Shown here: positions 2,938 through 21,753 of the stretch, in pieces
Position numbering within the stretch: position 1 is the stretch's first letter
How the letters are laid out: each line of letters opens with the position of its first letter
Source of the DNA: a bacterium
GTDB taxonomy: Bacteria > Patescibacteriota > JABMPQ01 > JBDRIV01
Reading direction: 5' to 3'
NCBI GenBank assembly: GCA_043815505.1
Contig: JBDRIV010000003.1
Coordinates: 62,239 to 126,238 of the forward strand
Length of the DNA: 64,000 nucleotides
The notes under the pieces: model-generated
Told to the model about the DNA's origin: nothing
Databases searched by the model: none
What the model saw: the letters and a program-made list of their open reading frames with translations, nothing else
Made by a program: the position numbers and the translations under genes

Positions 2938-3310
2938 ACCAGAATTTGTTCGTCAGCTTTTTATTACCTTTTTTATAACCAGTAGCATCTGGTTTTTTAT
3001 TTCGCTTGGTAAATTCATTTTCACTCCCCGTTTTGATAGCTCTGGTTATATTTTAACTTTGGTTTTGTTTTTACTTAGCTTGGCAATGATTTTAATTTTA
3101 CTATTTCCTAAAATAAGAAATTCTTTTATATATTCTTTAATGGTTGCCAGTTTTGCCTTTTTGTTAATTTTTTCTGGCAACCAAATATTACAAAAATCGG
3201 AAGCAGTTTGCCAGACAATAAAAAACTCTGAGTGGCAACAAGAATATTATTCTCTCGCCGGCCAAGCTTTGCAGAAGGAAACAAAAGAAAAACTGGCAGA
3301 GTGTTTGTAA
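2888..3310 (+). CDS. Hypothetical small membrane protein (3-4 TM helices)
   Basis: 140-aa ORF overlapping the uvrB 3' end. Hydrophobic segments, and followed directly by a hairpin terminator. No recognisable family. Confidence 0.3.
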
Positions 3311-5472: not shown

Positions 5473-6318
5473 ATGTCTTTGAAAAATGAGATGTGGGAAG
5501 TTTTGAAAACACAAGGCGCTGAAGCTTTCAACAGAATGCGTAAAGAAGAACCTGGTTTCCGTCCTAATTTTTCCGGTTATGATTTCCGCGGTTTGGAAAT
5601 TGAGGGAATTGATCTTTCTTTTGCAAATCTTACCGAAGCTAACTTTCGAGAGATGACAATTCACAAAGCAGATTTCTCTCATGCTTCAATGTCCCATGCC
5701 AATCTTTCCTTCAGCGTGCTCTGCGACACCAGGTTTGATGCAGTTAAATCAGAATGCATCGAAATTATGAACAGCAAAGTCTTCAACTGCATTTTCGACC
5801 AAGCAAAAATGGTGGAAGCTAATATGGCTAGAACTATTTTTGTAGGTGGTCACTTCTACGGCGTTAATCTGCTTAAGTCTTATTTGACTGATTCTGAATA
5901 CTGCTTACAGGGAGAGCATGGCGGAGCTATGACAGATTGTAATCTGCGAGGGGCTGAATTAAGCAATGCAGTCTTTCGTGGTTTGCTCATGGGTGGAACG
6001 GATTTTCGAGGTGCCACCATGCGCGGAACCGATCTTCGTCTGGCCAATCTGCGCGGTTGTATTTTTAAAGACCGCGAGGTCTCGAGAGCAAAGCTTAAAG
6101 GCGCTCACATTACTGTTCAGACTACAAATGGTTTTACCGAAGCGCGAATTTTAGAAGTTCTGCCCCTTAGCTGTTCTGATATAAGTGAGATCATACCTTC
6201 TTCAGCAAGTGAAGGTCATGAATTTTTTGTCACTTGGCAAGACTTGATTGTTAATATTCGCACCCTGCCCACTGAGCCTGGCTGGGATCCTTTCGACATC
6301 AACTACCTTAATTTGTAG
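5473..6318 (+). CDS. Pentapeptide-repeat protein
   Basis: 281 aa with many tandem A(D/N)LxX pentapeptides (ANLTEANFREMTIHKADFSHASMSHANLSFSVL, RGAELSNAVFRGLLMGGTDFRGATMRGTDLRLANLRGC). Confidence 0.8.
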   Translation: MSLKNEMWEVLKTQGAEAFNRMRKEEPGFRPNFSGYDFRGLEIEGIDLSFANLTEANFREMTIHKADFSHASMSHANLSFSVLCDTRFDAVKSECIEIMNSKVFNCIFDQAKMVEANMARTIFVGGHFYGVNLLKSYLTDSEYCLQGEHGGAMTDCNLRGAELSNAVFRGLLMGGTDFRGATMRGTDLRLANLRGCIFKDREVSRAKLKGAHITVQTTNGFTEARILEVLPLSCSDISEIIPSSASEGHEFFVTWQDLIVNIRTLPTEPGWDPFDINYLNL

Positions 6319-7508: not shown

Positions 7509-8801
7509 ATGAAAAAGAATTTTTTATTCGTGTCAGCCGACGGATTAATATCCGATGTCGCCTGGCATGTTTTTAAAGAAGGTCATGAAGTGCGACTTTC
7601 TATTGATAATAAAGAAGAGGCTGATGTGGCTGACGGTTTTGTTCCCAAGGTTGCAAATTGGAAAGAGCACGTTGACTGGGCCGATGTGATAGTTTTTGAT
7701 GATGTGCTTGGTTATGGAACAAAGGCTGATAAACTGCGTAAAACTGGTAAGGCAGTAATTGGTGGTACACCTTATATTGATCGTTTGGAAGATGATCGCT
7801 CGTTCGGACAAGAAGAATTGAAGAGGCATGGTATTAATATTTTAACTTATCAAAATTTTACTGATTTCGATGAAGCCATAGGCTTCGTTAAACAGAATCC
7901 TAACCGCTATGTAGTTAAACCTAGTGGTGAAGCCCAAAATCTTAAACGTTTATTGTTTGTTGGTCAAGAAGAAGATGGTAGTGATGTGATAAGAATTTTA
8001 GAGGCTTATAAAAAAGTTTGGATTCATAAAATTAAAATGTTTCAGTTGCAAAAAAGAGTAGACGGCGTTGAAGTAGCTATTGGTGTTTTTTTCAACGGTC
8101 AAGAATTCTTGTCTCCAATAAATGTGAATTTTGAGCATAAAAAATTATTTCCGGGAAATATCGGACCAGCTACCGGTGAAATGGGAACTTCTATGTTTTG
8201 GAGTGAACCAAATAAACTTTTTAATTCAACATTGAAAAAAATGGAAGAAACTTTGCACCTAGAAAATTATGTTGGTTACATCGATTTAAATTGTATTGTT
8301 AATAACTACGGAATTTATCCGCTGGAATTCACCGCCCGCTTTGGTTATCCAACTATCAGCATTCAACAAGAAAGTATGAATATGCCGATTGGAGAATTTT
8401 TATATACCTTGGCTAATAAGGGTCCTAATAATTTCAAGGCTAAAAAAGGTTATCATGTGGGTGTGCGCTTGGTTGTTCCTCCATATCCTTTCCGAGATAA
8501 AAGAACTTTTGATTCTTATTCCAAGGATGCCACGATTGTTTTTAAACATAAAGATAATTTGGACGGTATTCATATTGAAGATGTAAAATTGGTAAATGGT
8601 CAATGGACAGTAACCGGTTCGCGCGGTGTGGCTTTAGTTGTAACTGGTAGTGGCTCAACCATGAAACAAGCACAACAACAGGCCTACAATCGTATTCAAG
8701 ATGTACTAATCCCTAATATGTATTATCGCACTGATATTGGCAATCGTTGGTATGAAGATTTTGATAAACTTCACACTTGGGGTTATTTGCGCGAAATGTA
8801 A
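7509..8801 (+). CDS. ATP-grasp enzyme, PurD-like (phosphoribosylamine--glycine ligase family)
   Basis: 430 aa. The length, the ATP-grasp fold and the LEFTARFGYPT motif (EFNxRFGDPE in PurD) fit. No other pur genes are in the window. Confidence 0.55.
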   Translation: MKKNFLFVSADGLISDVAWHVFKEGHEVRLSIDNKEEADVADGFVPKVANWKEHVDWADVIVFDDVLGYGTKADKLRKTGKAVIGGTPYIDRLEDDRSFGQEELKRHGINILTYQNFTDFDEAIGFVKQNPNRYVVKPSGEAQNLKRLLFVGQEEDGSDVIRILEAYKKVWIHKIKMFQLQKRVDGVEVAIGVFFNGQEFLSPINVNFEHKKLFPGNIGPATGEMGTSMFWSEPNKLFNSTLKKMEETLHLENYVGYIDLNCIVNNYGIYPLEFTARFGYPTISIQQESMNMPIGEFLYTLANKGPNNFKAKKGYHVGVRLVVPPYPFRDKRTFDSYSKDATIVFKHKDNLDGIHIEDVKLVNGQWTVTGSRGVALVVTGSGSTMKQAQQQAYNRIQDVLIPNMYYRTDIGNRWYEDFDKLHTWGYLREM

Positions 8802-11416: not shown

Positions 11417-12370
11417 TTATGAACACATTTTGGTAACAAAAATATCTAACGCCAATAATCCTGATTGTTTCCCGTTTTTTATATCTTCGTCAGCTGTATA
11501 AAGTTTTTCCATCATTTGTTTCAATTCTTCAGAGGAAAAGTTTCTTGTTTGCTCCAGAGATTTTTTTACTACAAAGGGATGAAGTTTGGCTTCGCGGGCA
11601 ATTTGGTATTCATTCACTCCCCGCTCTTGTAAATCTTTTACAATTAGAAGATTTCTTAATTGGTACTGAATCATGGTCATCATGTAAAGTTCGTGTTTGC
11701 CAGTTTTCATTTCTGTATGAAGAAAGGTTAAAGCTTCTTGTTTATTTTTTCTGCCCAGAGCATCTGTGAAAGCAAAAATATTTTCCTGGAAGGTTGGAGC
11801 TACCAATTTTTCTACATCGGCCACTGAAATTTCCAAACCATCTTTGTATAATGCTAATTTCTCCAATTCAATATCAATTCGATTTAAATCGCTACCGACA
11901 AACTGAATTAATTTACCTAGAGCCTCACTATTAATTTTTGCTTCTTTTTGAGCAACTAATTCTTTTACATAATTCGTAAGAGCTAATCCTGTGAGCAAAT
12001 CAAATTCCTCAGCTGTTTTTGATTTGTTAAGAAATTTAAATAGTTTTATTCTTTTATCTGGAATTTCCTTTTCCCAAATTAACAAAACTGTGGATTCAGG
12101 AACTTTATTTTCTTCTAAAACTTCAGCTAAACTATCTTTAAATTCTTTTTTACCTTTACTCAAGGCGTTTTCCAAAAGTACTAATCTGGTTTTATTCAAA
12201 AATGGCATAGTAGAAATTTCAGACTTAACTTTGGCTAAATTTAAATCTGCATCTTTAAGATGAGAGAAATTTAATTCCCCATTTTGACTGGCTTTTAAAA
12301 ACTTGTCCTTGAAGGTTTTAACTTTTTGTCCGGAGCGATAAGTATCTTCTCCGAATAAGAAATAGATCAT
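11417..12370 (-). CDS. holA: DNA polymerase III delta subunit (HolA)
   Basis: 317 aa. N-terminus MIYFLFGEDTY and overall delta-subunit layout. Sits directly downstream of polA. Confidence 0.75.
   Translation of the reverse strand: MIYFLFGEDTYRSGQKVKTFKDKFLKASQNGELNFSHLKDADLNLAKVKSEISTMPFLNKTRLVLLENALSKGKKEFKDSLAEVLEENKVPESTVLLIWEKEIPDKRIKLFKFLNKSKTAEEFDLLTGLALTNYVKELVAQKEAKINSEALGKLIQFVGSDLNRIDIELEKLALYKDGLEISVADVEKLVAPTFQENIFAFTDALGRKNKQEALTFLHTEMKTGKHELYMMTMIQYQLRNLLIVKDLQERGVNEYQIAREAKLHPFVVKKSLEQTRNFSSEELKQMMEKLYTADEDIKNGKQSGLLALDIFVTKMCS
11423..11499. repeat. Direct repeat copy B, the native holA 3' end
   Basis: Encodes HolA C-terminus ...TADEDIKNGKQSGLLALDIFVTKMCS*. Matches copy A at 10282..10358. 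Confidence 0.8.
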
Positions 12371-12466: not shown

Positions 12467-15196
12467 TTACAAGTTAATTTCTTTCTGAGTAACGCAGGGG
12501 GACATATTATTCCAATTTGGCCCACTGGCTGCTTCCACTTTAATGGGAACTTTTAGTTGATACGCTTTTTCCATTAAATCTTTGATTGTGGCTGCATATT
12601 TGTTTACCATAGAACTTTTCACTTCGAAAAGCAACTCATCATGCACTTGCACTAACATTTTTATATCTTTCTTATTTGGTAGTAAAATCTTTTCAAAAAC
12701 TTTTTGCATGGCAATTTTAATAATGTCTGATGTTGTTCCTTGAACCGGCATATTGATTGCCATTCTTTCTGCACCAGCGGTAACCTGATATTGCCCCGAA
12801 TTTATCTCGGGAATATAACGCCGACGCCCAAGCATTGTTTCCACATATTCTTTGTCGCGCGCTTCCGCGACAATCTTTTCCATGTAATCTTGAATCTTTG
12901 GATATTTGGCAAAATAAGTGTCAATAAAATCTTTGGCCTTTTTTCTCTCAATGCTTAAAGTTTGCGAGAGCCCATAAGGACTCATACCATAAACCACACC
13001 AAAGTTTACTGTTTTAGCAATGCGACGTTCATCTTTAGAAATATCTTTAGCATCCTTTTCAAAAACCGTAGCAGCAGTTTGCGTATGAATGTCGGCACCC
13101 GATTTGAAAGCTTTAATCATTGCCTCATCACCTGCAATATGAGCCAAAACTCGCAAATCAATTTGGGAGTAATCACATGATAAAAGCGTATTACCGCGCG
13201 TGGCCACAAAAGCTTCGCGGATTTTTCTGCCTTCTTCGGTGCGAATCGGAATATTCTGCATATTAGGATCTGAAGATGACAAACGACCAGTGGCAGTTAC
13301 CGCTTGATTAAATGAAGCATGAATTCTATTTGTTTTCTTATTAATCAATTTGGGTAGAGAATCTACGTAAGTTGATTTTAATTTTGTCAGTTCGCGATAA
13401 TTTTCAATTAATGAAACTATTTCGTGTTTATCTTTTATTTTCTGCAATTCTGGAGAAGCAGTCGAAAAACCAGTCTGCGTTCTTTTAATTCCAACGGTTG
13501 GTAACTTCATCACTTCAAATAGTATATGAGATAATTGCTGAGTAGAATTGATATTGAAGTCTTTACGTCTGGCTTTTTTGTAAATATTTTTCTCTAAGCT
13601 TTTTATTTTGACTCTAAATATTTTGGAAATTTCTTTTAAGTATTTATCATCAATTGAAATACCGTTTAGTTCCATGTCAGCCAACACTTTTACTAGAGGC
13701 ATATCAATCTGGGAAAATACTTCTTGAAGTTTTGCTTCCTTGGCTAATTCTTTAGAAAATCTTGCTTGTAAACGAAATGTAATGTCAGCATCTTCAGCGG
13801 CATATTCTGCAATTCTTTTGGGGTCAATGTCCGTAATTGATTGCTTATCTTTTCCCTTGCCAACTAAATCGTCCCAGGTAATCATTGGTAATTGAAATTC
13901 TTCTATGGCTAAACGAGTTAGATTGTGCTGACGAGATCCTGGATTTAATAAATAGGAAGCTAGCATGGTATCAAAAGCAATTCCCTGCATATCAACTCCG
14001 GCGTTTAATAAAACAATATAATCATATTTAATATTGTGGCCGAATTTTTTAATTTTGTTGTTTTTTAAAACGGGTTTAAATATTTCTAGCAAATTATTTT
14101 GATAACAGTGTACATAATATGCTGTGCGCTCTTGGAAACAAAAAGAAATTCCCACTAATTCCGCTTGCACGGGAAATTCACTGGTCGTTTCGGTATCTAC
14201 TGCTATTTCTGATTGTTTGCTTAATTCTGAAACTAATTTTTTTGCTTCCGCTTCGTTATCAATCAAAATATAATTCCTAGCTGAATCTTTTTTGTTCGTT
14301 ACTTCTGGTTCATTTTGACCAATAACTTTTGGTAACAAGCTTTTAAATTCATATTTTTGAAAAAGCTTTACCGTTTGTGGATTTTTAAAATCAGGGACCG
14401 TGCATTTCTGCAAATCAAATTCAATTGGAACATCGGTAACAATAGTAGCCAATTCTTGGCTTAAATAAGATTCTTTTTTGTGTTCCAATAAAAGTTTAGC
14501 TGTGCGTGGTTTCATTTTGCCACCGCCATCTCCATGCTTGCCTACAAATTCATAAATCTTATCAAGCGTTCCAAATTCTTTTAACAAATCAACGGCGCCC
14601 TTATCACCAATTCCTTTAACACCAGGGATGTTGTCGGAAGAATCACCAGCAATGGATTTGTAATCAACTAATTGCTTGGGTTTAATTCCAAATTTTTCTT
14701 CCACTCCTTTTTCGTCAAATATTGTGGTTTCAGAAACGCCACGTTTCATGGTATAAACTTTGGTGTTTTTATCAACCAATTGAAAAGCATCTTGATCACC
14801 CGTGACAATAATGGTTTCTAAATCTTTTTGGCTATCTAACATTTTAGAAACCGTTCCAATCACGTCATCTGCTTCATAGCCCTGCTGAACATAAATGGGA
14901 ATATTTAATTTCTCTACTATTTCTTTCACGGTTTCCACTTGCTGATACAACTCGTCTGGGGCTTTTACTCTGGTTGCTTTATAATCGGCAAAAGATTCGT
15001 GACGAAAAGTGGGTCCTTTTAAATCAAAAGAAACGGCTATGTAATCTGGTTTTATCTCTTCTAGGGCCGAAAATAAAATTCGAGTAAAACCATAAACCGC
15101 TCCAATAGGTTCGCCCGCTTTAGTAGTCAGGGGGGGCATAGCGTGAAATGCGCGATGAATTAAAGCGTGACCGTCAATTATAACAAATTTTTTCAT
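12467..15196 (-). CDS. polA: DNA polymerase I
   Basis: 909 aa. 5'-3' exonuclease N-terminus, 3'-5' exonuclease domain, and polymerase motifs RRIAKTVNFGVVYG and VHDELLFE. Confidence 0.95.
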   Translation of the reverse strand: MKKFVIIDGHALIHRAFHAMPPLTTKAGEPIGAVYGFTRILFSALEEIKPDYIAVSFDLKGPTFRHESFADYKATRVKAPDELYQQVETVKEIVEKLNIPIYVQQGYEADDVIGTVSKMLDSQKDLETIIVTGDQDAFQLVDKNTKVYTMKRGVSETTIFDEKGVEEKFGIKPKQLVDYKSIAGDSSDNIPGVKGIGDKGAVDLLKEFGTLDKIYEFVGKHGDGGGKMKPRTAKLLLEHKKESYLSQELATIVTDVPIEFDLQKCTVPDFKNPQTVKLFQKYEFKSLLPKVIGQNEPEVTNKKDSARNYILIDNEAEAKKLVSELSKQSEIAVDTETTSEFPVQAELVGISFCFQERTAYYVHCYQNNLLEIFKPVLKNNKIKKFGHNIKYDYIVLLNAGVDMQGIAFDTMLASYLLNPGSRQHNLTRLAIEEFQLPMITWDDLVGKGKDKQSITDIDPKRIAEYAAEDADITFRLQARFSKELAKEAKLQEVFSQIDMPLVKVLADMELNGISIDDKYLKEISKIFRVKIKSLEKNIYKKARRKDFNINSTQQLSHILFEVMKLPTVGIKRTQTGFSTASPELQKIKDKHEIVSLIENYRELTKLKSTYVDSLPKLINKKTNRIHASFNQAVTATGRLSSSDPNMQNIPIRTEEGRKIREAFVATRGNTLLSCDYSQIDLRVLAHIAGDEAMIKAFKSGADIHTQTAATVFEKDAKDISKDERRIAKTVNFGVVYGMSPYGLSQTLSIERKKAKDFIDTYFAKYPKIQDYMEKIVAEARDKEYVETMLGRRRYIPEINSGQYQVTAGAERMAINMPVQGTTSDIIKIAMQKVFEKILLPNKKDIKMLVQVHDELLFEVKSSMVNKYAATIKDLMEKAYQLKVPIKVEAASGPNWNNMSPCVTQKEINL

Positions 15197-16002
15197 GGCG
15201 CTTGATTTTTAAACTGAAATGTTTGAGCAATTGAATCAAGCAAATTTTCATTATCATTAGCTTCCGAAAATTTTTGGCGGAGAACAAAGAATTTATTTTT
15301 TGTTTCAAAAACATAAACAAGTTGTTCGTCGCTAATTATTCTCTGCGTGATTATTCCCTTAATTTTCATGGTCTCAATATCGTTAGCGCTAGCTACCATT
15401 TCTAAAAGCAGATCCGGACTTAAATTGTCATTTAGTAATTGGTTATTAATATAATCAATAAATGAATAAAGTTTTATATTTTGCACGCTTTGTAAATAGA
15501 ATTTTTGGTCCGTATTTTCAATATTGGCAACAACAATTTCTTCTTCCGTATCATTTACAGCATAAGACTGCGGGAATTGAAATATAATTTCTGCATTTTC
15601 ATAAATTTTCCAATCCGTTATATCACTTGCTTCTTTTAAGGTTGGTAATTTATTTTTAGGACTATAGCCAAAAATTGCTTCGTCACCATCCATAAAACCG
15701 TCATAATCAGTATCAACTTGGCGTGGATCAGTATTATATTTAGCTTCCAAATAATCGCTTAGTTTGTCGCCGTCTAAATCTCCTAGCAACTCCGCACGCG
15801 AACTTGCGGGAGCATCTTTTAGAAAACGTGAGACTTCACCCGAACTTAATTGTTGAACTTGATTTTCATTTGTGGCAAAATCAGCCTTAATGCCCACAGG
15901 ATTCTGTTGTTTCAAATAACCATAATAAAAGCCACTAACAATCATCCCTAAAAATATAAGGACGCCAAAAGTGATTTTAATTAATTCGGAAGTTTTAGAC
16001 AT
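15193..16002 (-). CDS. Hypothetical membrane-anchored protein with DxDxDG-type acidic repeats
   Basis: 269 aa. N-terminal TM helix, then GDLDGDKLSD and VDTDYDGFMDGDEA calcium-binding-like motifs. Confidence 0.4.
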   Translation of the reverse strand: MSKTSELIKITFGVLIFLGMIVSGFYYGYLKQQNPVGIKADFATNENQVQQLSSGEVSRFLKDAPASSRAELLGDLDGDKLSDYLEAKYNTDPRQVDTDYDGFMDGDEAIFGYSPKNKLPTLKEASDITDWKIYENAEIIFQFPQSYAVNDTEEEIVVANIENTDQKFYLQSVQNIKLYSFIDYINNQLLNDNLSPDLLLEMVASANDIETMKIKGIITQRIISDEQLVYVFETKNKFFVLRQKFSEANDNENLLDSIAQTFQFKNQAP

Positions 16003-17462: not shown

Positions 17463-17867
17463 ATGATTTATGCATGGATTACGCTATCTGCTTTGTTTCT
17501 CATCTTGGGAATCTGGAGACTTATTCGCAGGGTAAATAACCTTGGTTCAAATGCATTTATCGACTCGGCTTGTTTGATTGGTTCAATGCTTGTTATAGCT
17601 GCTGCTGCGGGATTTCTTCTTGGCTTTGTGATTTTCGACCAAAGTAAGTGGTATACAGTTCTTATGATCACATCTGGAGTAGGTCTTCTTGCAACCATTG
17701 GAACGAGTTACTATTACCATCGTGAATACAAGCGTTGTGAAAATAATATGTATTTAAACTATGTTTGTGACAGAGAGATTCAGTATCAAGGTATTTCAAT
17801 AGTTCTCTTGATTATTCTTGTTATTTCAGCTGCTCTGCACTTTGAGATAATATTTACAGGAGGATAA
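17463..17867 (+). CDS. Small membrane protein (134 aa, 4 TM)
   Basis: Near-identical RBS context (AAAGGAGAGAAAAATG) to the preceding gene. Four hydrophobic helices. Confidence 0.5.
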   Translation: MIYAWITLSALFLILGIWRLIRRVNNLGSNAFIDSACLIGSMLVIAAAAGFLLGFVIFDQSKWYTVLMITSGVGLLATIGTSYYYHREYKRCENNMYLNYVCDREIQYQGISIVLLIILVISAALHFEIIFTGG

Positions 17868-18179
17868 TATGTTAAACATATTCTGTGTAAATGTATTTGT
17901 GATTTTTGTTTGAGGCATGATTCTTTCGATTGTTTTTGCCTTGATCTTTAAAAGAAGAGCTGAGAACTTTGTCTGTGTTGACAAAATGCCTAGAGCCAAC
18001 AAAACTGCACTCAACAGAATTATAAAAAAATTGTCCTTTATGGATTAGCATCCGCTTTTGATCCTTTCACTTCTTACAATCTGGGCATGGATGAAGTTTC
18101 CATGATCCAAAACCTATTGATTGAAAACGTCAGGTTTCAACTTGGCGTTTTTTTATTTTACCCCGAGCTGACTAAGGAC

Positions 18180-18208
18180 TTGACAAATATATAAGCATCT
18201 GCTACAAT
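18180..18208 (+). promoter_or_regulatory. Consensus sigma70 promoter TTGACA-N17-TACAAT
   Basis: Perfect -35 and near-perfect -10 with 17-nt spacing. No protein-coding ORF downstream on this strand. Confidence 0.5.
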
Positions 18209-18259
18209 GACATGTTTTGCTGATTTAATGAATTTACGATGAGCCCGCAGGCGAATCGG

Positions 18260-18363
18260 CAACAAAAAACTGTAGACGACTAAGAAGTTTTCTAGTAAGG
18301 ATTCGTGAGGACCTCCTCTTCACATTTCCTTCTAAATTGCTTCTTGTCTACAGTTTTTTGTTG
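18260..18363 (+). ncRNA. Candidate small RNA or structured element: 18-bp perfect inverted repeat enclosing about 68 nt
   Basis: CAACAAAAAACTGTAGAC (18260-18277) pairs perfectly with GTCTACAGTTTTTTGTTG (18346-18363). Lies downstream of the consensus promoter. Confidence 0.3.
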
Positions 18364-18374
18364 GTTCGATTGAA

Positions 18375-18420
18375 CTCGCCACAAGTGGTTCTACAAGCTC
18401 GCCACAAGTGGTTCTACAAG
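18375..18420. repeat. Tandem direct repeat, 2 x 23 bp (CTCGCCACAAGTGGTTCTACAAG)
   Basis: Two perfect adjacent copies. Each contains the dyad CCACAAGTGG. Confidence 0.7.
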
Positions 18421-18457
18421 TTTTGGTTTGAATAATATTAATAGCTCAATGTAAATT

Positions 18458-18712
18458 TTATTTTTTACCGTTAGGATTCAAAATCGCTTCTAAAACCTCT
18501 TTAGCTACGGCTTTTTTCTCAGCTTCTGTTTCGGTATTTTTAGAAAATGATATTTTAATATCTTCTCCTTCTTTAGAGTTTTTTGGAAGTAAATTTAAGG
18601 GTAACTCAAAACGTCCAATGGCTTCATTGGTGGCTACAAAACGGTCAGTTGTGATTTCCACAACTTTAGCAACTATCTTGGGATAGTATTTATCTAAAAC
18701 TTCGTCTGGCAT
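18458..18712 (-). CDS. Hypothetical protein (84 aa)
   Basis: ORF with a charged C-terminus. Its start codon is directly abutted by the MITE-like element and there is no canonical RBS. Confidence 0.35.
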   Translation of the reverse strand: MPDEVLDKYYPKIVAKVVEITTDRFVATNEAIGRFELPLNLLPKNSKEGEDIKISFSKNTETEAEKKAVAKEVLEAILNPNGKK

Positions 18713-18812
18713 CCCGGTAGTACAACTTATTGATAAATTGATTTGTTTACCTTTCTTTTATTTTTGTAGAAAGGATTATTTTGTTCTTTTCTCACCCGGT
18801 TGTACTACCGGG
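18713..18812. repeat. MITE-like element, 100 bp, 14-bp terminal inverted repeats CCCGGTAGTACAAC / GTTGTACTACCGGG
   Basis: Perfect 14-bp TIRs and an AT-rich interior with an internal hairpin (CCTTTCT/AGAAAGG). Related element at 46126..46234. Confidence 0.5.
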
Positions 18813-18901
18813 CATAATTTAGGGCAAATATTAAAACTCAAAAATCAAAACTGTTAAGTGAACATGCAAATATAGCACGGGATTTTTTGATAGTCAATAA
18901 A

Positions 18902-18934
18902 ACTCCGCTCATTAATACTTGGCGGAGTTTTTTG
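18902..18934. terminator. Bidirectional hairpin terminator (ACTCCGC-N13-GCGGAGT) at the clpC 3' end
   Basis: 7-bp stem flanked by an A-run and TTTTTT. Confidence 0.45.
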
Positions 18935-18978
18935 GTCAAATCAAGTTTTTACTTTTGAGCTTTAACTTTTGACTTATT

Positions 18979-21666
18979 TTACACCTTAGCTTTTTTCCGA
19001 CTGCGCTTTGATTTTTCTTTAATGAAATTGAATTCGCCATTTCTACCTAGTTCAATTCTAATGGTATTTCCGCTTCTAAAATCTCCTGTCAGCAAAGCGT
19101 TGGAAAGTCGGTTTTCAATTTTCTTTTGAATTACTCGACGCAGAGGCCGGGCTCCAAATGATGGTTCAAAACCTTCCTCAACTAATTTTCTCTTTACGCC
19201 GTCAGTTACTTTTAATTTTATGTTTTGTCCTTGCAAAAGCTTCTGCACATCATCCAACATCAAATTTACAATTTGTTTAATCTGTTTTCTGTTCAGTGAT
19301 TGAAAAATTATAATGTCGTCGATTCGATTCAAAAACTCGGGACGAAAAGCTTTTTTCAATTCCTGCATCAACTCACCTTTAATAGTTTCAGTAATGCTTC
19401 CCTTTTCATCTTTTTTACCTTTTTTATCTTCAAAACCAAATTTTTTAACGGCCGCGTCCTGAATAATATTGGAACCCAAATTTGAAGTAGCAATAATAAC
19501 TACATTTTTAAAATCCACCAAACGACCTTTAGAATCTGTGAGTTGACCATCTTCCAAGATTTGCAACAGCACATTAAAGACGTCAGGATGAGCTTTTTCA
19601 ATTTCATCAAGCAACACAATGCTATATGGTTTTTGTCGAACTTTTTCTGTTAGCTGTCCTGGTTCTTCATAACCAACATATCCGGGAGGCGCACCAATAA
19701 GTTTGGAAACATTATGACGCTCCATGTATTCTGACATATCAACTCGCACAATGGCCGATTCATCACCAAACAATTGTTCAGCCAAAGCTTTGGCCAATTC
19801 AGTTTTTCCCACGCCAGTCGGTCCGAGGAATATAAATGAACCTACTGGACGTTTCGGATCTTTTAAACCACTACGTCCACGACGTACAGCTTCGGACACG
19901 GCGGTAACAGCTTCTTCTTGTCCAATTATTCTTTCGTGTAATCTGTTTTCCAAATGTAAAAGTTTTTCAACTTCCTCTTCAGCTAATTCCTGCACTGGAA
20001 TTCCTGTCCACTTGGAAAGCACTTCTTCAATATCAGAAGATAAAACAATTGGTTGACCAGTAGATCTATCTTTAGTCCAAGAAGCGTGGAACTCTTCTTT
20101 TTGTTGAGTTAGTTTGGTAATTTCTTTTTCAATTTTTATGATTCTAGATTTAACACCAGCTTTTTTGGCATCCTCTTTTTCGTTGGCCAGTTTTTTTAAT
20201 TCCTTTTCCAGTTCTTTTAATTTATTAGGAGCGGCAATTGAAGCTAAACGAATTTTGGCACCAGCTTCATCAATTAAGTCTATGGCCTTGTCGGGCAAAT
20301 GACGGTCAGTCAAATATCTATCAGAAAGTCCCGCCGCCGCTACAATCGCTTCGTCAGAAATCTGCACTTTGTGATGAGCTTCATAACGATCGCGCAAGCC
20401 TCGCAGAATTTCAATAGAGACATCAACGTTTGGTTCATTAACAAGAATTGGCTGGAATCTTCTTTCTAAAGCGGCATCTTTTTCAATGTGTTTACGATAC
20501 TCATTCAAAGTAGTAGCCCCAATGGTTTGCAGTTCACCACGAGCGAGGGCTGGTTTTAGCATATTAGAAGCGTCAATGGCACCTTCGGCGGCACCGGCAC
20601 CAACCATAGTATGCATTTCATCAATAAAGAGAATTATATTGCGTTGTTCTTTTTTAATTTCTTCAATTACTTTTTTAATACGTTTTTCAAATTCACCACG
20701 ATATTTGGTTCCCGAAAGCGCACTACTTAAATCAAGCGAGACTACTCTTTTGCCAACTAGATTTTCTGGCACGTCGTCAGAAACTATTTTGGTAGCCAAT
20801 CCTTCCACAATCGCAGTTTTTCCTACACCCGGTTCACCAATTAACACTGGATTATTTTTTGTGCGTCGCGACAAAATTTGTACCACTCTTTCAATTTCAT
20901 CTTCCCGACCAATAACGGGATCGAGCCGACCGTCTTTAGCTTGAGTTGTTAAATCGGTTGAGTATTCATCTAGAGTTGGGGTGTTAGATTTTTTCTTTTT
21001 AATTCTTTTTCCTTCACCGACAACTTTTAGAACTGCGCCGCGAGCCTTGGTGTCGTTAACAGCATATTTTCCGAGAACTTGAGCGGCCATGCCTTCACCT
21101 TCTTTAACCAGTCCTAAAAAAATATGTTCGGAACTAACATAGTTGTGACCAAGATCGCGCGCTTCATAAAAAGCTTGCTCTAAGGCTTTTTTAGCACGGG
21201 GAGAAAGCTCCGGTTCGCCAACTTCTTTTTCGCCTTTGATTAAATTTTCTTCTAAATAAGCTTTTAGATCTTCAGTTTTAATTCCCAGTTCTGAAAATAT
21301 TTGTTTGGTAATTTCATCTTCATCTAAAAGCCCCCGTAAAATGTGCTCCGTATCAACCATTTGTGATTTGTTATCACGTGCTGCCTGCACACTATTACTG
21401 ATTACTTTTTTAGCTCGGTCAGAAAAATAGTCCAAAATATTTATGTAAGAACGACGCGGCGCTTGAAATTGTGGCAAACCACCAAACAAATTATTTGAAC
21501 CGCCTAGCATAGAAGAAAACATTCCGTCGTTACCAAAAATAGCCTGTTCTTCAGCACAGGTATGACACAAATGAAATTCTTGGGTGCGCCCATTAACATT
21601 TTGTTTGATATTGACTGTTGCCGGACGTTGTCCGCAAGACTGACAAAGGTAAGCTCTATTATCCAT
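18979..21666 (-). CDS. clpC: ATP-dependent Clp protease ATP-binding subunit / ClpC-ClpB-family chaperone with N-terminal C4 zinc ribbon
   Basis: 895 aa. Two AAA+ modules ([31 protein letters not shown]), a coiled-coil middle domain, and an N-terminal CxxC...CxxC motif. Confidence 0.85.
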
Positions 21667-21724: not shown

Positions 21725-21753
21725 ATTGTAAAAAAGATTATTGTTTGTGTCAA
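21725..21753 (-). promoter_or_regulatory. clpC promoter TTGACA-N17-TACAAT (read on the minus strand), just upstream of CIRCE
   Basis: Consensus hexamers with 17-nt spacing, positioned so that CIRCE overlaps the transcription start region. Confidence 0.5.

Follow-up and report, generated by a model that had tools for sequence, protein, structure and literature searches.

Here, we describe a predicted small RNA (sRNA) gene in a 64,000-nt stretch of contig JBDRIV010000003.1 (hereafter the window), together with the family to which it belongs. At positions 18180-18366 on the plus strand of the window, a sigma-70-type promoter is followed by a long hairpin, and the same arrangement recurs at nine related loci. 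In this family the promoter and the genomic position are conserved, the structure is under selection on the RNA strand, an invariant helix adjoins a bulge, and Rfam holds no corresponding entry. A small RNA was one of the candidates put forward in a sequence-only reading of the window; conservation of promoter and hairpin in ten loci of a Patescibacteria clade, with covariation and strand-specific G-U pairing, supports this candidate.

Organization of the locus

The window, part of a Patescibacteria metagenome-assembled genome, is AT-rich (GC content about 36%), and the genes around the locus in the window and its relatives comprise clpC, hsp20, prsW, vanW, ruvB, and polA. The left boundary of the RNA unit is an intrinsic terminator (Table 1) that closes the upstream plus-strand genes for 62-aa and 134-aa membrane proteins, so the promoter at 18180-18208 opens a separate unit. 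This promoter has the form TTGACA-N14-TG-N-TACAAT, i.e., a 17-nt spacer with a TG-extended -10 element. It had been read as a perfect consensus and as the best promoter of the window; the motif is indeed found at this position, but it scores 11 of 12 and ties with the clpC promoter (21753-21725, minus strand). Strict matches to TTGACA-N14-TG-N-TANNNT occur three times in the window, at 18180(+), 39344(+), and 60452(-), the second preceding a 124-aa open reading frame (ORF) and the third a 203-aa ORF. The claim that only ORFs of 14 codons or fewer follow the promoter of the RNA unit holds for a 14-codon ATG ORF but misses a 32-codon TTG ORF at 18337-18435, which is a mechanical call without a Shine-Dalgarno sequence and is not conserved.

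Starting from the extended -10 promoter, transcription would begin near G18214, and the product of about 150 nt would consist of a 45-nt leader and a 104-nt unbranched hairpin (18260-18363). The hairpin is built on the 18-bp perfect inverted repeat that the sequence-only reading had reported: the arms at 18260-18277 and 18346-18363 are 100% complementary and enclose 68 nt. Inverted repeats with a length of 16 nt or more within 200 nt number only five in the 64 kb, this one included, and two arm matches at up to three mismatches were observed against 0.11 expected, a count that no shuffle reached. The predicted RNA (18214-18366) folds at -58 kcal/mol (z = -7.0), and the hairpin interior alone has a z-score of -4.3. 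With a 19-bp stem followed by U6 (18354-18359), the hairpin has the form of an intrinsic terminator, and the 3' end of the RNA is predicted at about 18359-18366. Since its A6...T6 base is symmetric, the hairpin could also terminate the minus-strand transcript of the 84-aa gene at 18458-18712, on which the RNA was correctly said to converge. An antisense regulator, likewise suggested at the outset, finds no support in these positions, as the RNA overlaps no gene and should already end at the U6 tract, about 100 nt short of the stop codon of the convergent gene.

A leader peptide with the UAG of the invariant arm as its stop codon was considered and rejected because its frame is already closed by a TGA at 18240. 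No ORF is common to the family members, whose interiors differ in sequence and length, which argues against a type I toxin or another small-protein gene.

Conservation in related genomes

Relatives were sought on the contigs that encode the closest relatives of the window ClpC. The closest other ClpC proteins are 60-65% identical to it and labelled Patescibacteria or Parcubacteria group; the window ClpC and the 84-aa protein are themselves 100% identical to NCBI entries labelled 'MAG: ... [bacterium]'. Each fetched locus holding ruvB has a hairpin bounded by CUGUAGRC...GYCUACAG between a vanW-like gene and ruvB. The family set thus comprises ten sequences, i.e., the window and nine relatives (L081, L082, L084-L089, and L091; Table 1). 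The last of these was recovered from metagenome contigs with a DNA pattern, CTGTAGACGCCYC-N62-92-GTCTACAG; although no protein information entered that search, its position is again the gap between vanW and ruvB.

In all ten loci, the hairpin is preceded at a distance of 25-185 nt by a strict TTGACA-N14-TG-N-TANNNT promoter on the sense strand, and only seven other strict matches occur in the 480 kb of strand searched. Exactly 5 nt past the -10 hexamer, nine of the ten members have GTTAC, GTTTT, or GTTAA; this shared GTT start suggests a conserved 5' end. Transcription always leads away from the ruvB side, the strand relative to ruvB being the same at every locus, and the promoter-defined orientation is matched by comparisons of the interiors in 33 of 36 sequence pairs. 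Every locus has a convergent protein gene; in the relatives this is vanW, whose position is taken in the window by the 84-aa gene. With one copy in the 64-kb window, one per locus, and the vanW-ruvB position kept in nine relatives, the element does not behave like a miniature inverted-repeat transposable element (MITE) or a repetitive extragenic palindrome (REP).

Leader lengths range from about 20 to about 180 nt, and the 3' side of the hairpin varies as well. A U-tract directly follows the hairpin in six of the ten members (window, L081, L084, L085, L088, and L091) and is missing from this place in L082, L086, L087, and L089. L082 has a separate canonical terminator immediately 3' of the long hairpin, which, together with the missing U-tract in L086, L087, and L089, indicates that the hairpin is more than a terminator. 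Termination is a trait of only some members and cannot serve to define the family.

Two observations concern single members. L086 and L087 have a conserved segment of 160-185 nt between promoter and hairpin (L086 15168-15357 and L087 15931-16144, both minus strand), with the sequence CGTTAACCGTGTCGCGTGAGGTTTGA ... ATATGAGGCTCAGTTTCGC ... CCTCAC, long-range GUGAGG/CCUCAC pairing, and a possible ORF of 14-15 codons (MRLSFA...); it could represent an additional RNA domain or a leader peptide. The leaders of L089 and L091 are also long, with sequences unlike this segment. In L089, a public 70-aa gene call (14973-15185, plus strand) overlies the RNA hairpin on the opposite strand (14982-15133) and is a likely spurious call that arose because the RNA is unannotated.

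Table 1 Features of the RNA locus in the window and hairpins of the nine relatives
Sequence	Feature	Position	Strand	Remarks
Window	Intrinsic terminator of upstream plus-strand genes	18123-18152	+	13-pair stem, then T-run
Window	Sigma-70-type promoter	18180-18208	+	-35 TTGACA 18180-18185, TG 18200-18201, -10 TACAAT 18203-18208
Window	Predicted 5' leader	18214-18259	+	Predicted start G18214 (GUUUU...), about 45 nt; small hairpin 18237-18258
Window	Basal stem, 5' arm CAACAAAAAA (A-tract)	18260-18269	+	Pairs with 18354-18363
Window	Invariant 5' arm CUGUAGAC	18270-18277	+	CUGUAG-C fixed in 10/10 members
Window	Variable upper hairpin	18278-18345	+	5' bulge about 18279-18282 (ACUA), three helices, apical loop CCUCC 18312-18316
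Window	Invariant 3' arm GUCUACAG	18346-18353	+	Partner of CUGUAGAC
Window	U-tract and basal stem, 3' arm UUUUUUGUUG	18354-18363	+	Predicted RNA 3' end about 18359-18366
Window	Two exact copies of CTCGCCACAAGTGGTTCTACAAG	18375-18420		Outside the conserved RNA, beyond the U6 terminator
Window	Convergent 84-aa orphan gene	18458-18712	-	Right boundary of the RNA unit; weak sub-threshold DUF3006 match
L081	Hairpin	12040-12145		
L082	Hairpin	12151-12232		L083 is an identical sequence
L084	Hairpin	15149-15236		
L085	Hairpin	15091-15177		
L086	Hairpin	15064-15167		
L087	Hairpin	15828-15930		
L088	Hairpin	5869-5969		
L089	Hairpin	15007-15108		
L091	Hairpin	3020-3117		Found by DNA pattern in metagenome contigs

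Selection on the RNA structure

The common fold has a basal stem of about 10-16 bp per member, which is variable in sequence and covarying, and an 8-bp helix, CUGUAGRC/GYCUACAG, which is invariant in all ten members except for its seventh pair (A-U, G-C, or G-U). Immediately on top of this helix, each member has 3-8 bulged nucleotides on the 5' side, facing 0-1 nt on the 3' side. The bulge is often C/U-rich: it reads GCCUCAA in L086, L087, L089, and L091, GCCCCCAA in L081, and CUCGU in L088, while AGCU and CCG occur among L082, L084, and L085 and ACUA in the window. The upper hairpin, 66-90 nt between the arms, is unbranched in all ten, and its sequence, length, and loop vary by lineage (apical loops CCUCC, CUUGCU, UUUAC, UUCG, GGUAUA, and GGUUA among the members). 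Taken alone, the ten interiors are significantly structured, with z-scores from -1.5 to -4.3.

The ten-sequence alignment gives the basal stem 24 pairs, of which 15 show compensatory changes, and the stem is 88.8% paired, as opposed to 35-48% in slid controls in which the partners were shifted by 1-3 columns. The covariation score is 0.58, compared with at most 0.21 in the slid controls, and of 500 shuffles, none came up to the observed value on four measures and seven did on a fifth. MAFFT alignments of the interiors are structurally inconsistent, and alifold recovers the basal stem only; substitutions between close pairs were therefore examined in place of a family-wide covariation count for the interior. 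Between L086 and L087, seven base pairs have changed (two by compensation, five via G-U) and none is broken, with differences in 41 of 76 unpaired columns but in only 9 of 78 paired ones. L084 and L085 differ in ten base pairs, all via G-U and again without a broken pair.

The sense fold is more stable than the antisense fold in each of the ten members (sums of -601 vs. -464 kcal/mol), and the sense folds contain 83 G-U pairs compared with 27 in the antisense folds. This asymmetry argues against a cruciform or a binding site at the DNA level.

Further structural motifs were looked for and dismissed. For a pseudoknot joining the 5' bulge to the leader, a complementary GAGGC is present in L086, L087, and L091 but, as judged by eye, absent from L089, L081, and the window. 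Readings as a kink-turn, a tRNA-like or CCA-bearing structure, or a DnaA box failed as their defining nucleotides are missing (also by eye).

Specificity of the family and database searches

A covariance model, R1, was built from the ten-member alignment; the window is part of the training set, and the E-values are rough. The ten members score 84-115 bits in the sense and 17-35 bits in the antisense direction (window, 83.8 bits), and R1 gave no further match in 1.1 Mb, including 80 clpC loci of other phyla (about 800 kb), which served as negative controls, and L092-L096. The window has all four features of the family, i.e., the strict promoter, the invariant helix, the bulge on the 5' side only, and the unbranched upper hairpin.

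The Rfam scan for 6S RNA, signal recognition particle (SRP) RNA, and other sRNAs, which the sequence-only reading had suggested as a check, came back without a match. At gathering threshold, Rfam 15 matched no family anywhere in the 64-kb window, and the loci of six relatives gave no 6S, SRP, Y RNA, or other credible match. Permissive scans returned nothing meaningful over window positions 17850-19000 (including 6S, SRP, and Y RNA at E <= 10), no match at E <= 1 in L091-L096, and none at E <= 10 in the RNA regions of L084 and L087. Rfam detects an ordinary transfer-messenger RNA (tmRNA) beside smpB in L084 (7229-7618, minus strand) and L085 (6149-6538, minus strand), at 107-110 bits, so the models do work on standard RNAs of this clade. 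Literature on non-coding RNAs of the Candidate Phyla Radiation or Patescibacteria yielded nothing relevant to the family.

The metagenome pattern gave six matches, of which one is a true member (L091) and five are copies of an unrelated, GC-rich palindromic element. The latter, in L092-L096 (ERZ1739052.*, Ga0080027_10053160, Ga0209863_10036063), combines the ends CTGTAGACGCCTCCCTCTGGGAGGCGCGGG ... CCCGCGCTTCGCAGAGCGAAGCGTCTACAG with a variable centre and is recognised by neither R1 nor Rfam. As three contigs of one sample carry it, a multi-copy REP/MITE-like repeat from a high-GC organism is its probable identity; the CUGUAGAC termini are shared only because the search pattern required them.

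The 23-bp tandem repeat

The sequence-only reading had treated the hairpin and the repeats next to it as one object. The two exact tandem 23-mers exist as described, but they and the hairpin are separate things, the one an adjacent duplication restricted to the window genome and the other a conserved candidate RNA gene. The window has only two tandem repeats, of which this pair scores higher. No further copy was found in the window at up to three mismatches, the collections metagenome_contigs and viral_contigs gave zero matches, and the 23-mer is absent from the corresponding position in the nine relatives. The repeat region (18364-18460) has no significant fold (z = -0.85). Tandem Repeats Finder (TRF) reports an internal period of about 12 nt, with CNACAAG occurring four times, and the 23-mer contains UCUACAAG, which resembles the invariant 3' arm. 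The dyad CCACAAGTGG noted within each copy is present, though it amounts only to CCAC-N2-GTGG with 4-bp arms, and its five matches at up to one mismatch (2.2 expected) are not clearly above chance.

Paired operator sites, as once proposed for these copies, find no support, as the repeat is absent from nine relatives, lies downstream of both convergent units, and carries a weak dyad. The related idea of CTGTAGA-like iterons around the hairpins was likewise dropped, as about 20 such heptamers were seen against about 16 expected, i.e., without enrichment across the family. Nothing supports an operator role of the 23-mers in this one genome. The spacer holding them is probably the 3' untranslated region (UTR) of the convergent 84-aa gene, and the simplest reading of the pair is a recent slippage duplication found in the window genome only, for which a function is without support.

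Neighbouring genes and further inverted repeats

No homologue of the 84-aa protein beyond itself was found in the database search. Its gene has a promoter-like site with TG, TTGACT-17-TATATT, at 18897-18869 on the minus strand, and a 5' UTR (18713-18897, minus strand) with a perfect stem of 14 bp, whose arms fall within 18788-18812 and 18713-18737 and which stops exactly at the AUG (z = -2.8). This stem, which adjoins the heat-shock genes clpC and hsp20, could be a translational control element or an RNA thermometer. The ClpC gene (18979-21666, minus strand) encodes an N-terminal extension with CxxC...CxxC (...HLCHTCAEE) and has the promoter TTGACA-17-TACAAT at 21725-21753 (minus strand); the gene order prsW-hsp20-clpC is kept in most relatives.

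Elsewhere in the window, an inverted repeat of 23 nt (7386-7408/7507-7529; 96% complementary, 98 nt between the arms) covers with its 3' arm the ATG of a 430-aa ORF starting at 7509. Sequestration of the start codon is one possibility, chance in AT-rich DNA another. ARAGORN found no tRNA or tmRNA in the window, no recombinase or transposase adjoins the hairpin element there, and blastn of the whole region against phage and plasmid collections gave zero matches.

Interpretation

On balance, we favour the view that 18180-18366(+) is an independent, lineage-specific sRNA gene of an uncatalogued family, whose invariant helix and bulge would be recognised or processed by a protein and whose product would act in trans. 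The base of the hairpin, flanked by A6 and U6, would terminate the RNA and, by its symmetry, the transcript of the 84-aa gene as well. The invariant helix and its bulge may serve a protein, either an RNA-binding partner or a double-strand RNase, as a site of sequence-specific recognition or processing, and the RNA would then act as a stable, protein-bound species rather than through a conserved base-pairing seed. Taken by itself, the protein-binding part of this proposal is held only tentatively; we prefer it because conservation is centred on a helix with an adjoining asymmetric bulge and the members lack a single-stranded seed common to all. More speculative still is the idea of a hitherto unknown ribonucleoprotein, conserved across a Patescibacteria clade, for which the RNA serves as scaffold and the CUGUAGAC/GUCUACAG helix with the 5' bulge as the docking or cleavage site of a dedicated protein. 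Such an RNA might have a partner in the style of Y or 6S RNA, or RNase III-type processing might release the upper hairpin, and the variable top would either evolve freely or carry lineage-specific information.

Several points weigh against the favoured view. The start, the end, and even the expression of the RNA are predictions from sequence, and protein binding is read from a single pattern, i.e., an invariant helix, a bulge, and a variable top. The family consists of ten sequences from about six independent lineages, and the covariation of the interior rests on two close pairs, the interiors being too diverged for a trustworthy structural alignment. No RNA copy was found in L090 and L097, which have clpC but no ruvB in the fetched region, although these two may simply lack the ruvB region. 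Moreover, the hairpin of the window looks exactly like a strong bidirectional terminator, and the C/U-rich unpaired segments of several members (CCUCC, GCCUC, GCCCCC) would fit an sRNA that pairs with Shine-Dalgarno sequences.

The latter alternative, a trans-acting base-pairing sRNA of the RsaE/RoxS type in which a C/U-rich loop or bulge pairs with Shine-Dalgarno regions while the hairpin stabilises and terminates the RNA, is unlikely in our judgement, yet plausible. The apical loop CCUCC of the window lies within ACCUCCU, which equals the anti-Shine-Dalgarno sequence of 16S rRNA, and CCUC or CCCC is exposed in many members through the bulges GCCUCAA and GCCCCCAA, with CUCGU in L088. However, a single-stranded motif common to all is lacking: L082, L084, and L085 have CCG or AGCU bulges and the loops UUUAC, GGUAUA, and GGUUA, without CCUC. 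The C-rich segment also shifts its place from the loop in the window to the bulge in other members, and the invariant nucleotides lie within a helix and not in a seed. That the element is only a long bidirectional terminator or insulator between convergent genes, its promoter being incidental or giving a short functionless transcript, would agree with a hairpin that faces the 3' end of a convergent gene at ten of ten loci and is flanked by an A-tract and a U-tract in six of ten members. We nevertheless consider it improbable, as the element has, at all ten loci, a near-consensus promoter of its own and a conserved initial transcribed sequence, and termination needs neither the invariant 8-bp sequence nor the conserved 5' bulge. 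Furthermore, L082 carries its own canonical terminator, four members have no U-tract beside the hairpin, the vanW gene of L081 appears by eye to have a terminator-like hairpin of its own, and the G-U pattern shows that only one strand is under selection.

A divergent 6S-type RNA that binds the RNA polymerase holoenzyme could account for the strong sigma-70 promoter and for a long irregular hairpin product of about 135-190 nt in most members, and no other 6S candidate was seen in the window. The 6S-like hairpin envisaged in the sequence-only reading is nonetheless very improbable: minimum free energy folds of the ten members are near-continuous helices with small loops only, no member has the large central bubble, the Rfam 6S models remain unmatched even at E <= 10, and conservation lies in the lower helix and not around a bubble. 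Scarcely credible, finally, is a DNA-level element in which the inverted repeat acts as a cruciform or recombinase site and the 23-mers, with four CNACAAG about 11.5 bp apart, as iterons or operators. Its attractions are the invariant arms CTGTAGAC/GTCTACAG, the 12-nt sub-period of the 23-mer found by TRF, and an extra CTGTAGA-like copy near the hairpins of L086 and L091. Yet G-U versus A-C mismatches are strongly strand-asymmetric, which would not be expected from selection on DNA, the spacing of the arms varies between 66 and 90 nt, extra heptamers are close to expectation, the 23-mers are missing from every relative, and there is no adjoining recombinase or transposase.

Significance

Patescibacteria (Candidate Phyla Radiation) have tiny genomes for which, to our knowledge, almost no non-coding RNAs have been described beyond rRNA, tRNA, tmRNA, RNase P RNA, and SRP RNA. 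Retention of promoter, ruvB position, 8-bp helix, and RNA fold at about 60% ClpC identity in such streamlined genomes makes it unlikely that this RNA gene is dispensable. The present analysis provides a definition of the family, a covariance model, and a specific putative recognition module (helix plus bulge), as well as a warning for annotation, given the 70-aa ORF called atop the RNA in L089. If confirmed, an abundant, protein-bound RNA would extend the short list of stable bacterial RNAs by a new class; as a ribonucleoprotein component it would be among the few housekeeping-type RNAs specific to ultra-small, host-dependent bacteria. A base-pairing sRNA or a terminator would be a routine addition to the RNA catalogue.

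Comparison with known RNA systems

Among known systems, bidirectional intrinsic terminators share the order of A-tract, stem, and U-tract between convergent genes, into which the 18-bp repeat of the window with its A6/T6 fits. They differ from the present family in that its hairpin measures 104-130 nt, has an invariant core, a conserved bulge, and a dedicated promoter, and is supplemented by a separate terminator in some members. Like C-rich-loop sRNAs of the RsaE/RoxS type, six to seven of the ten members have unpaired C/U-rich segments (CCUCC, GCCUC), but this motif is neither universal nor fixed in position and comes without sequence or covariance-model similarity. 6S RNA (ssrS) is likewise encoded by a stand-alone gene with a strong sigma-70 promoter and forms a long irregular hairpin; the present family departs from it by the missing central bubble, by the lack of a match to RF00013 and related models, and by a conserved part that is the lower helix.

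The small SRP RNA (4.5S, ffs) resembles the family as an unbranched hairpin RNA of about 100-115 nt with its own promoter. In SRP RNA, the apical domain IV with its GNRA tetraloop is conserved, whereas in the present family the apex is the most variable and the base the invariant part, with neither the GNRA motif of domain IV nor a covariance-model match. Y RNAs, the partners of Ro60/Rsr, differ in their conserved sequence and tRNA-like domain, which the family does not have, and in the missing Rfam match; among the neighbours examined at the window and the relatives' loci, there is no rsr/TROVE gene, the rest of the genomes not having been searched. The likeness to Y RNA is one of design only, namely a length of about 100-150 nt, ends paired into a long stem, a conserved lower helix whose adjoining bulge serves as recognition site, a variable top, and a 3' U-tail.

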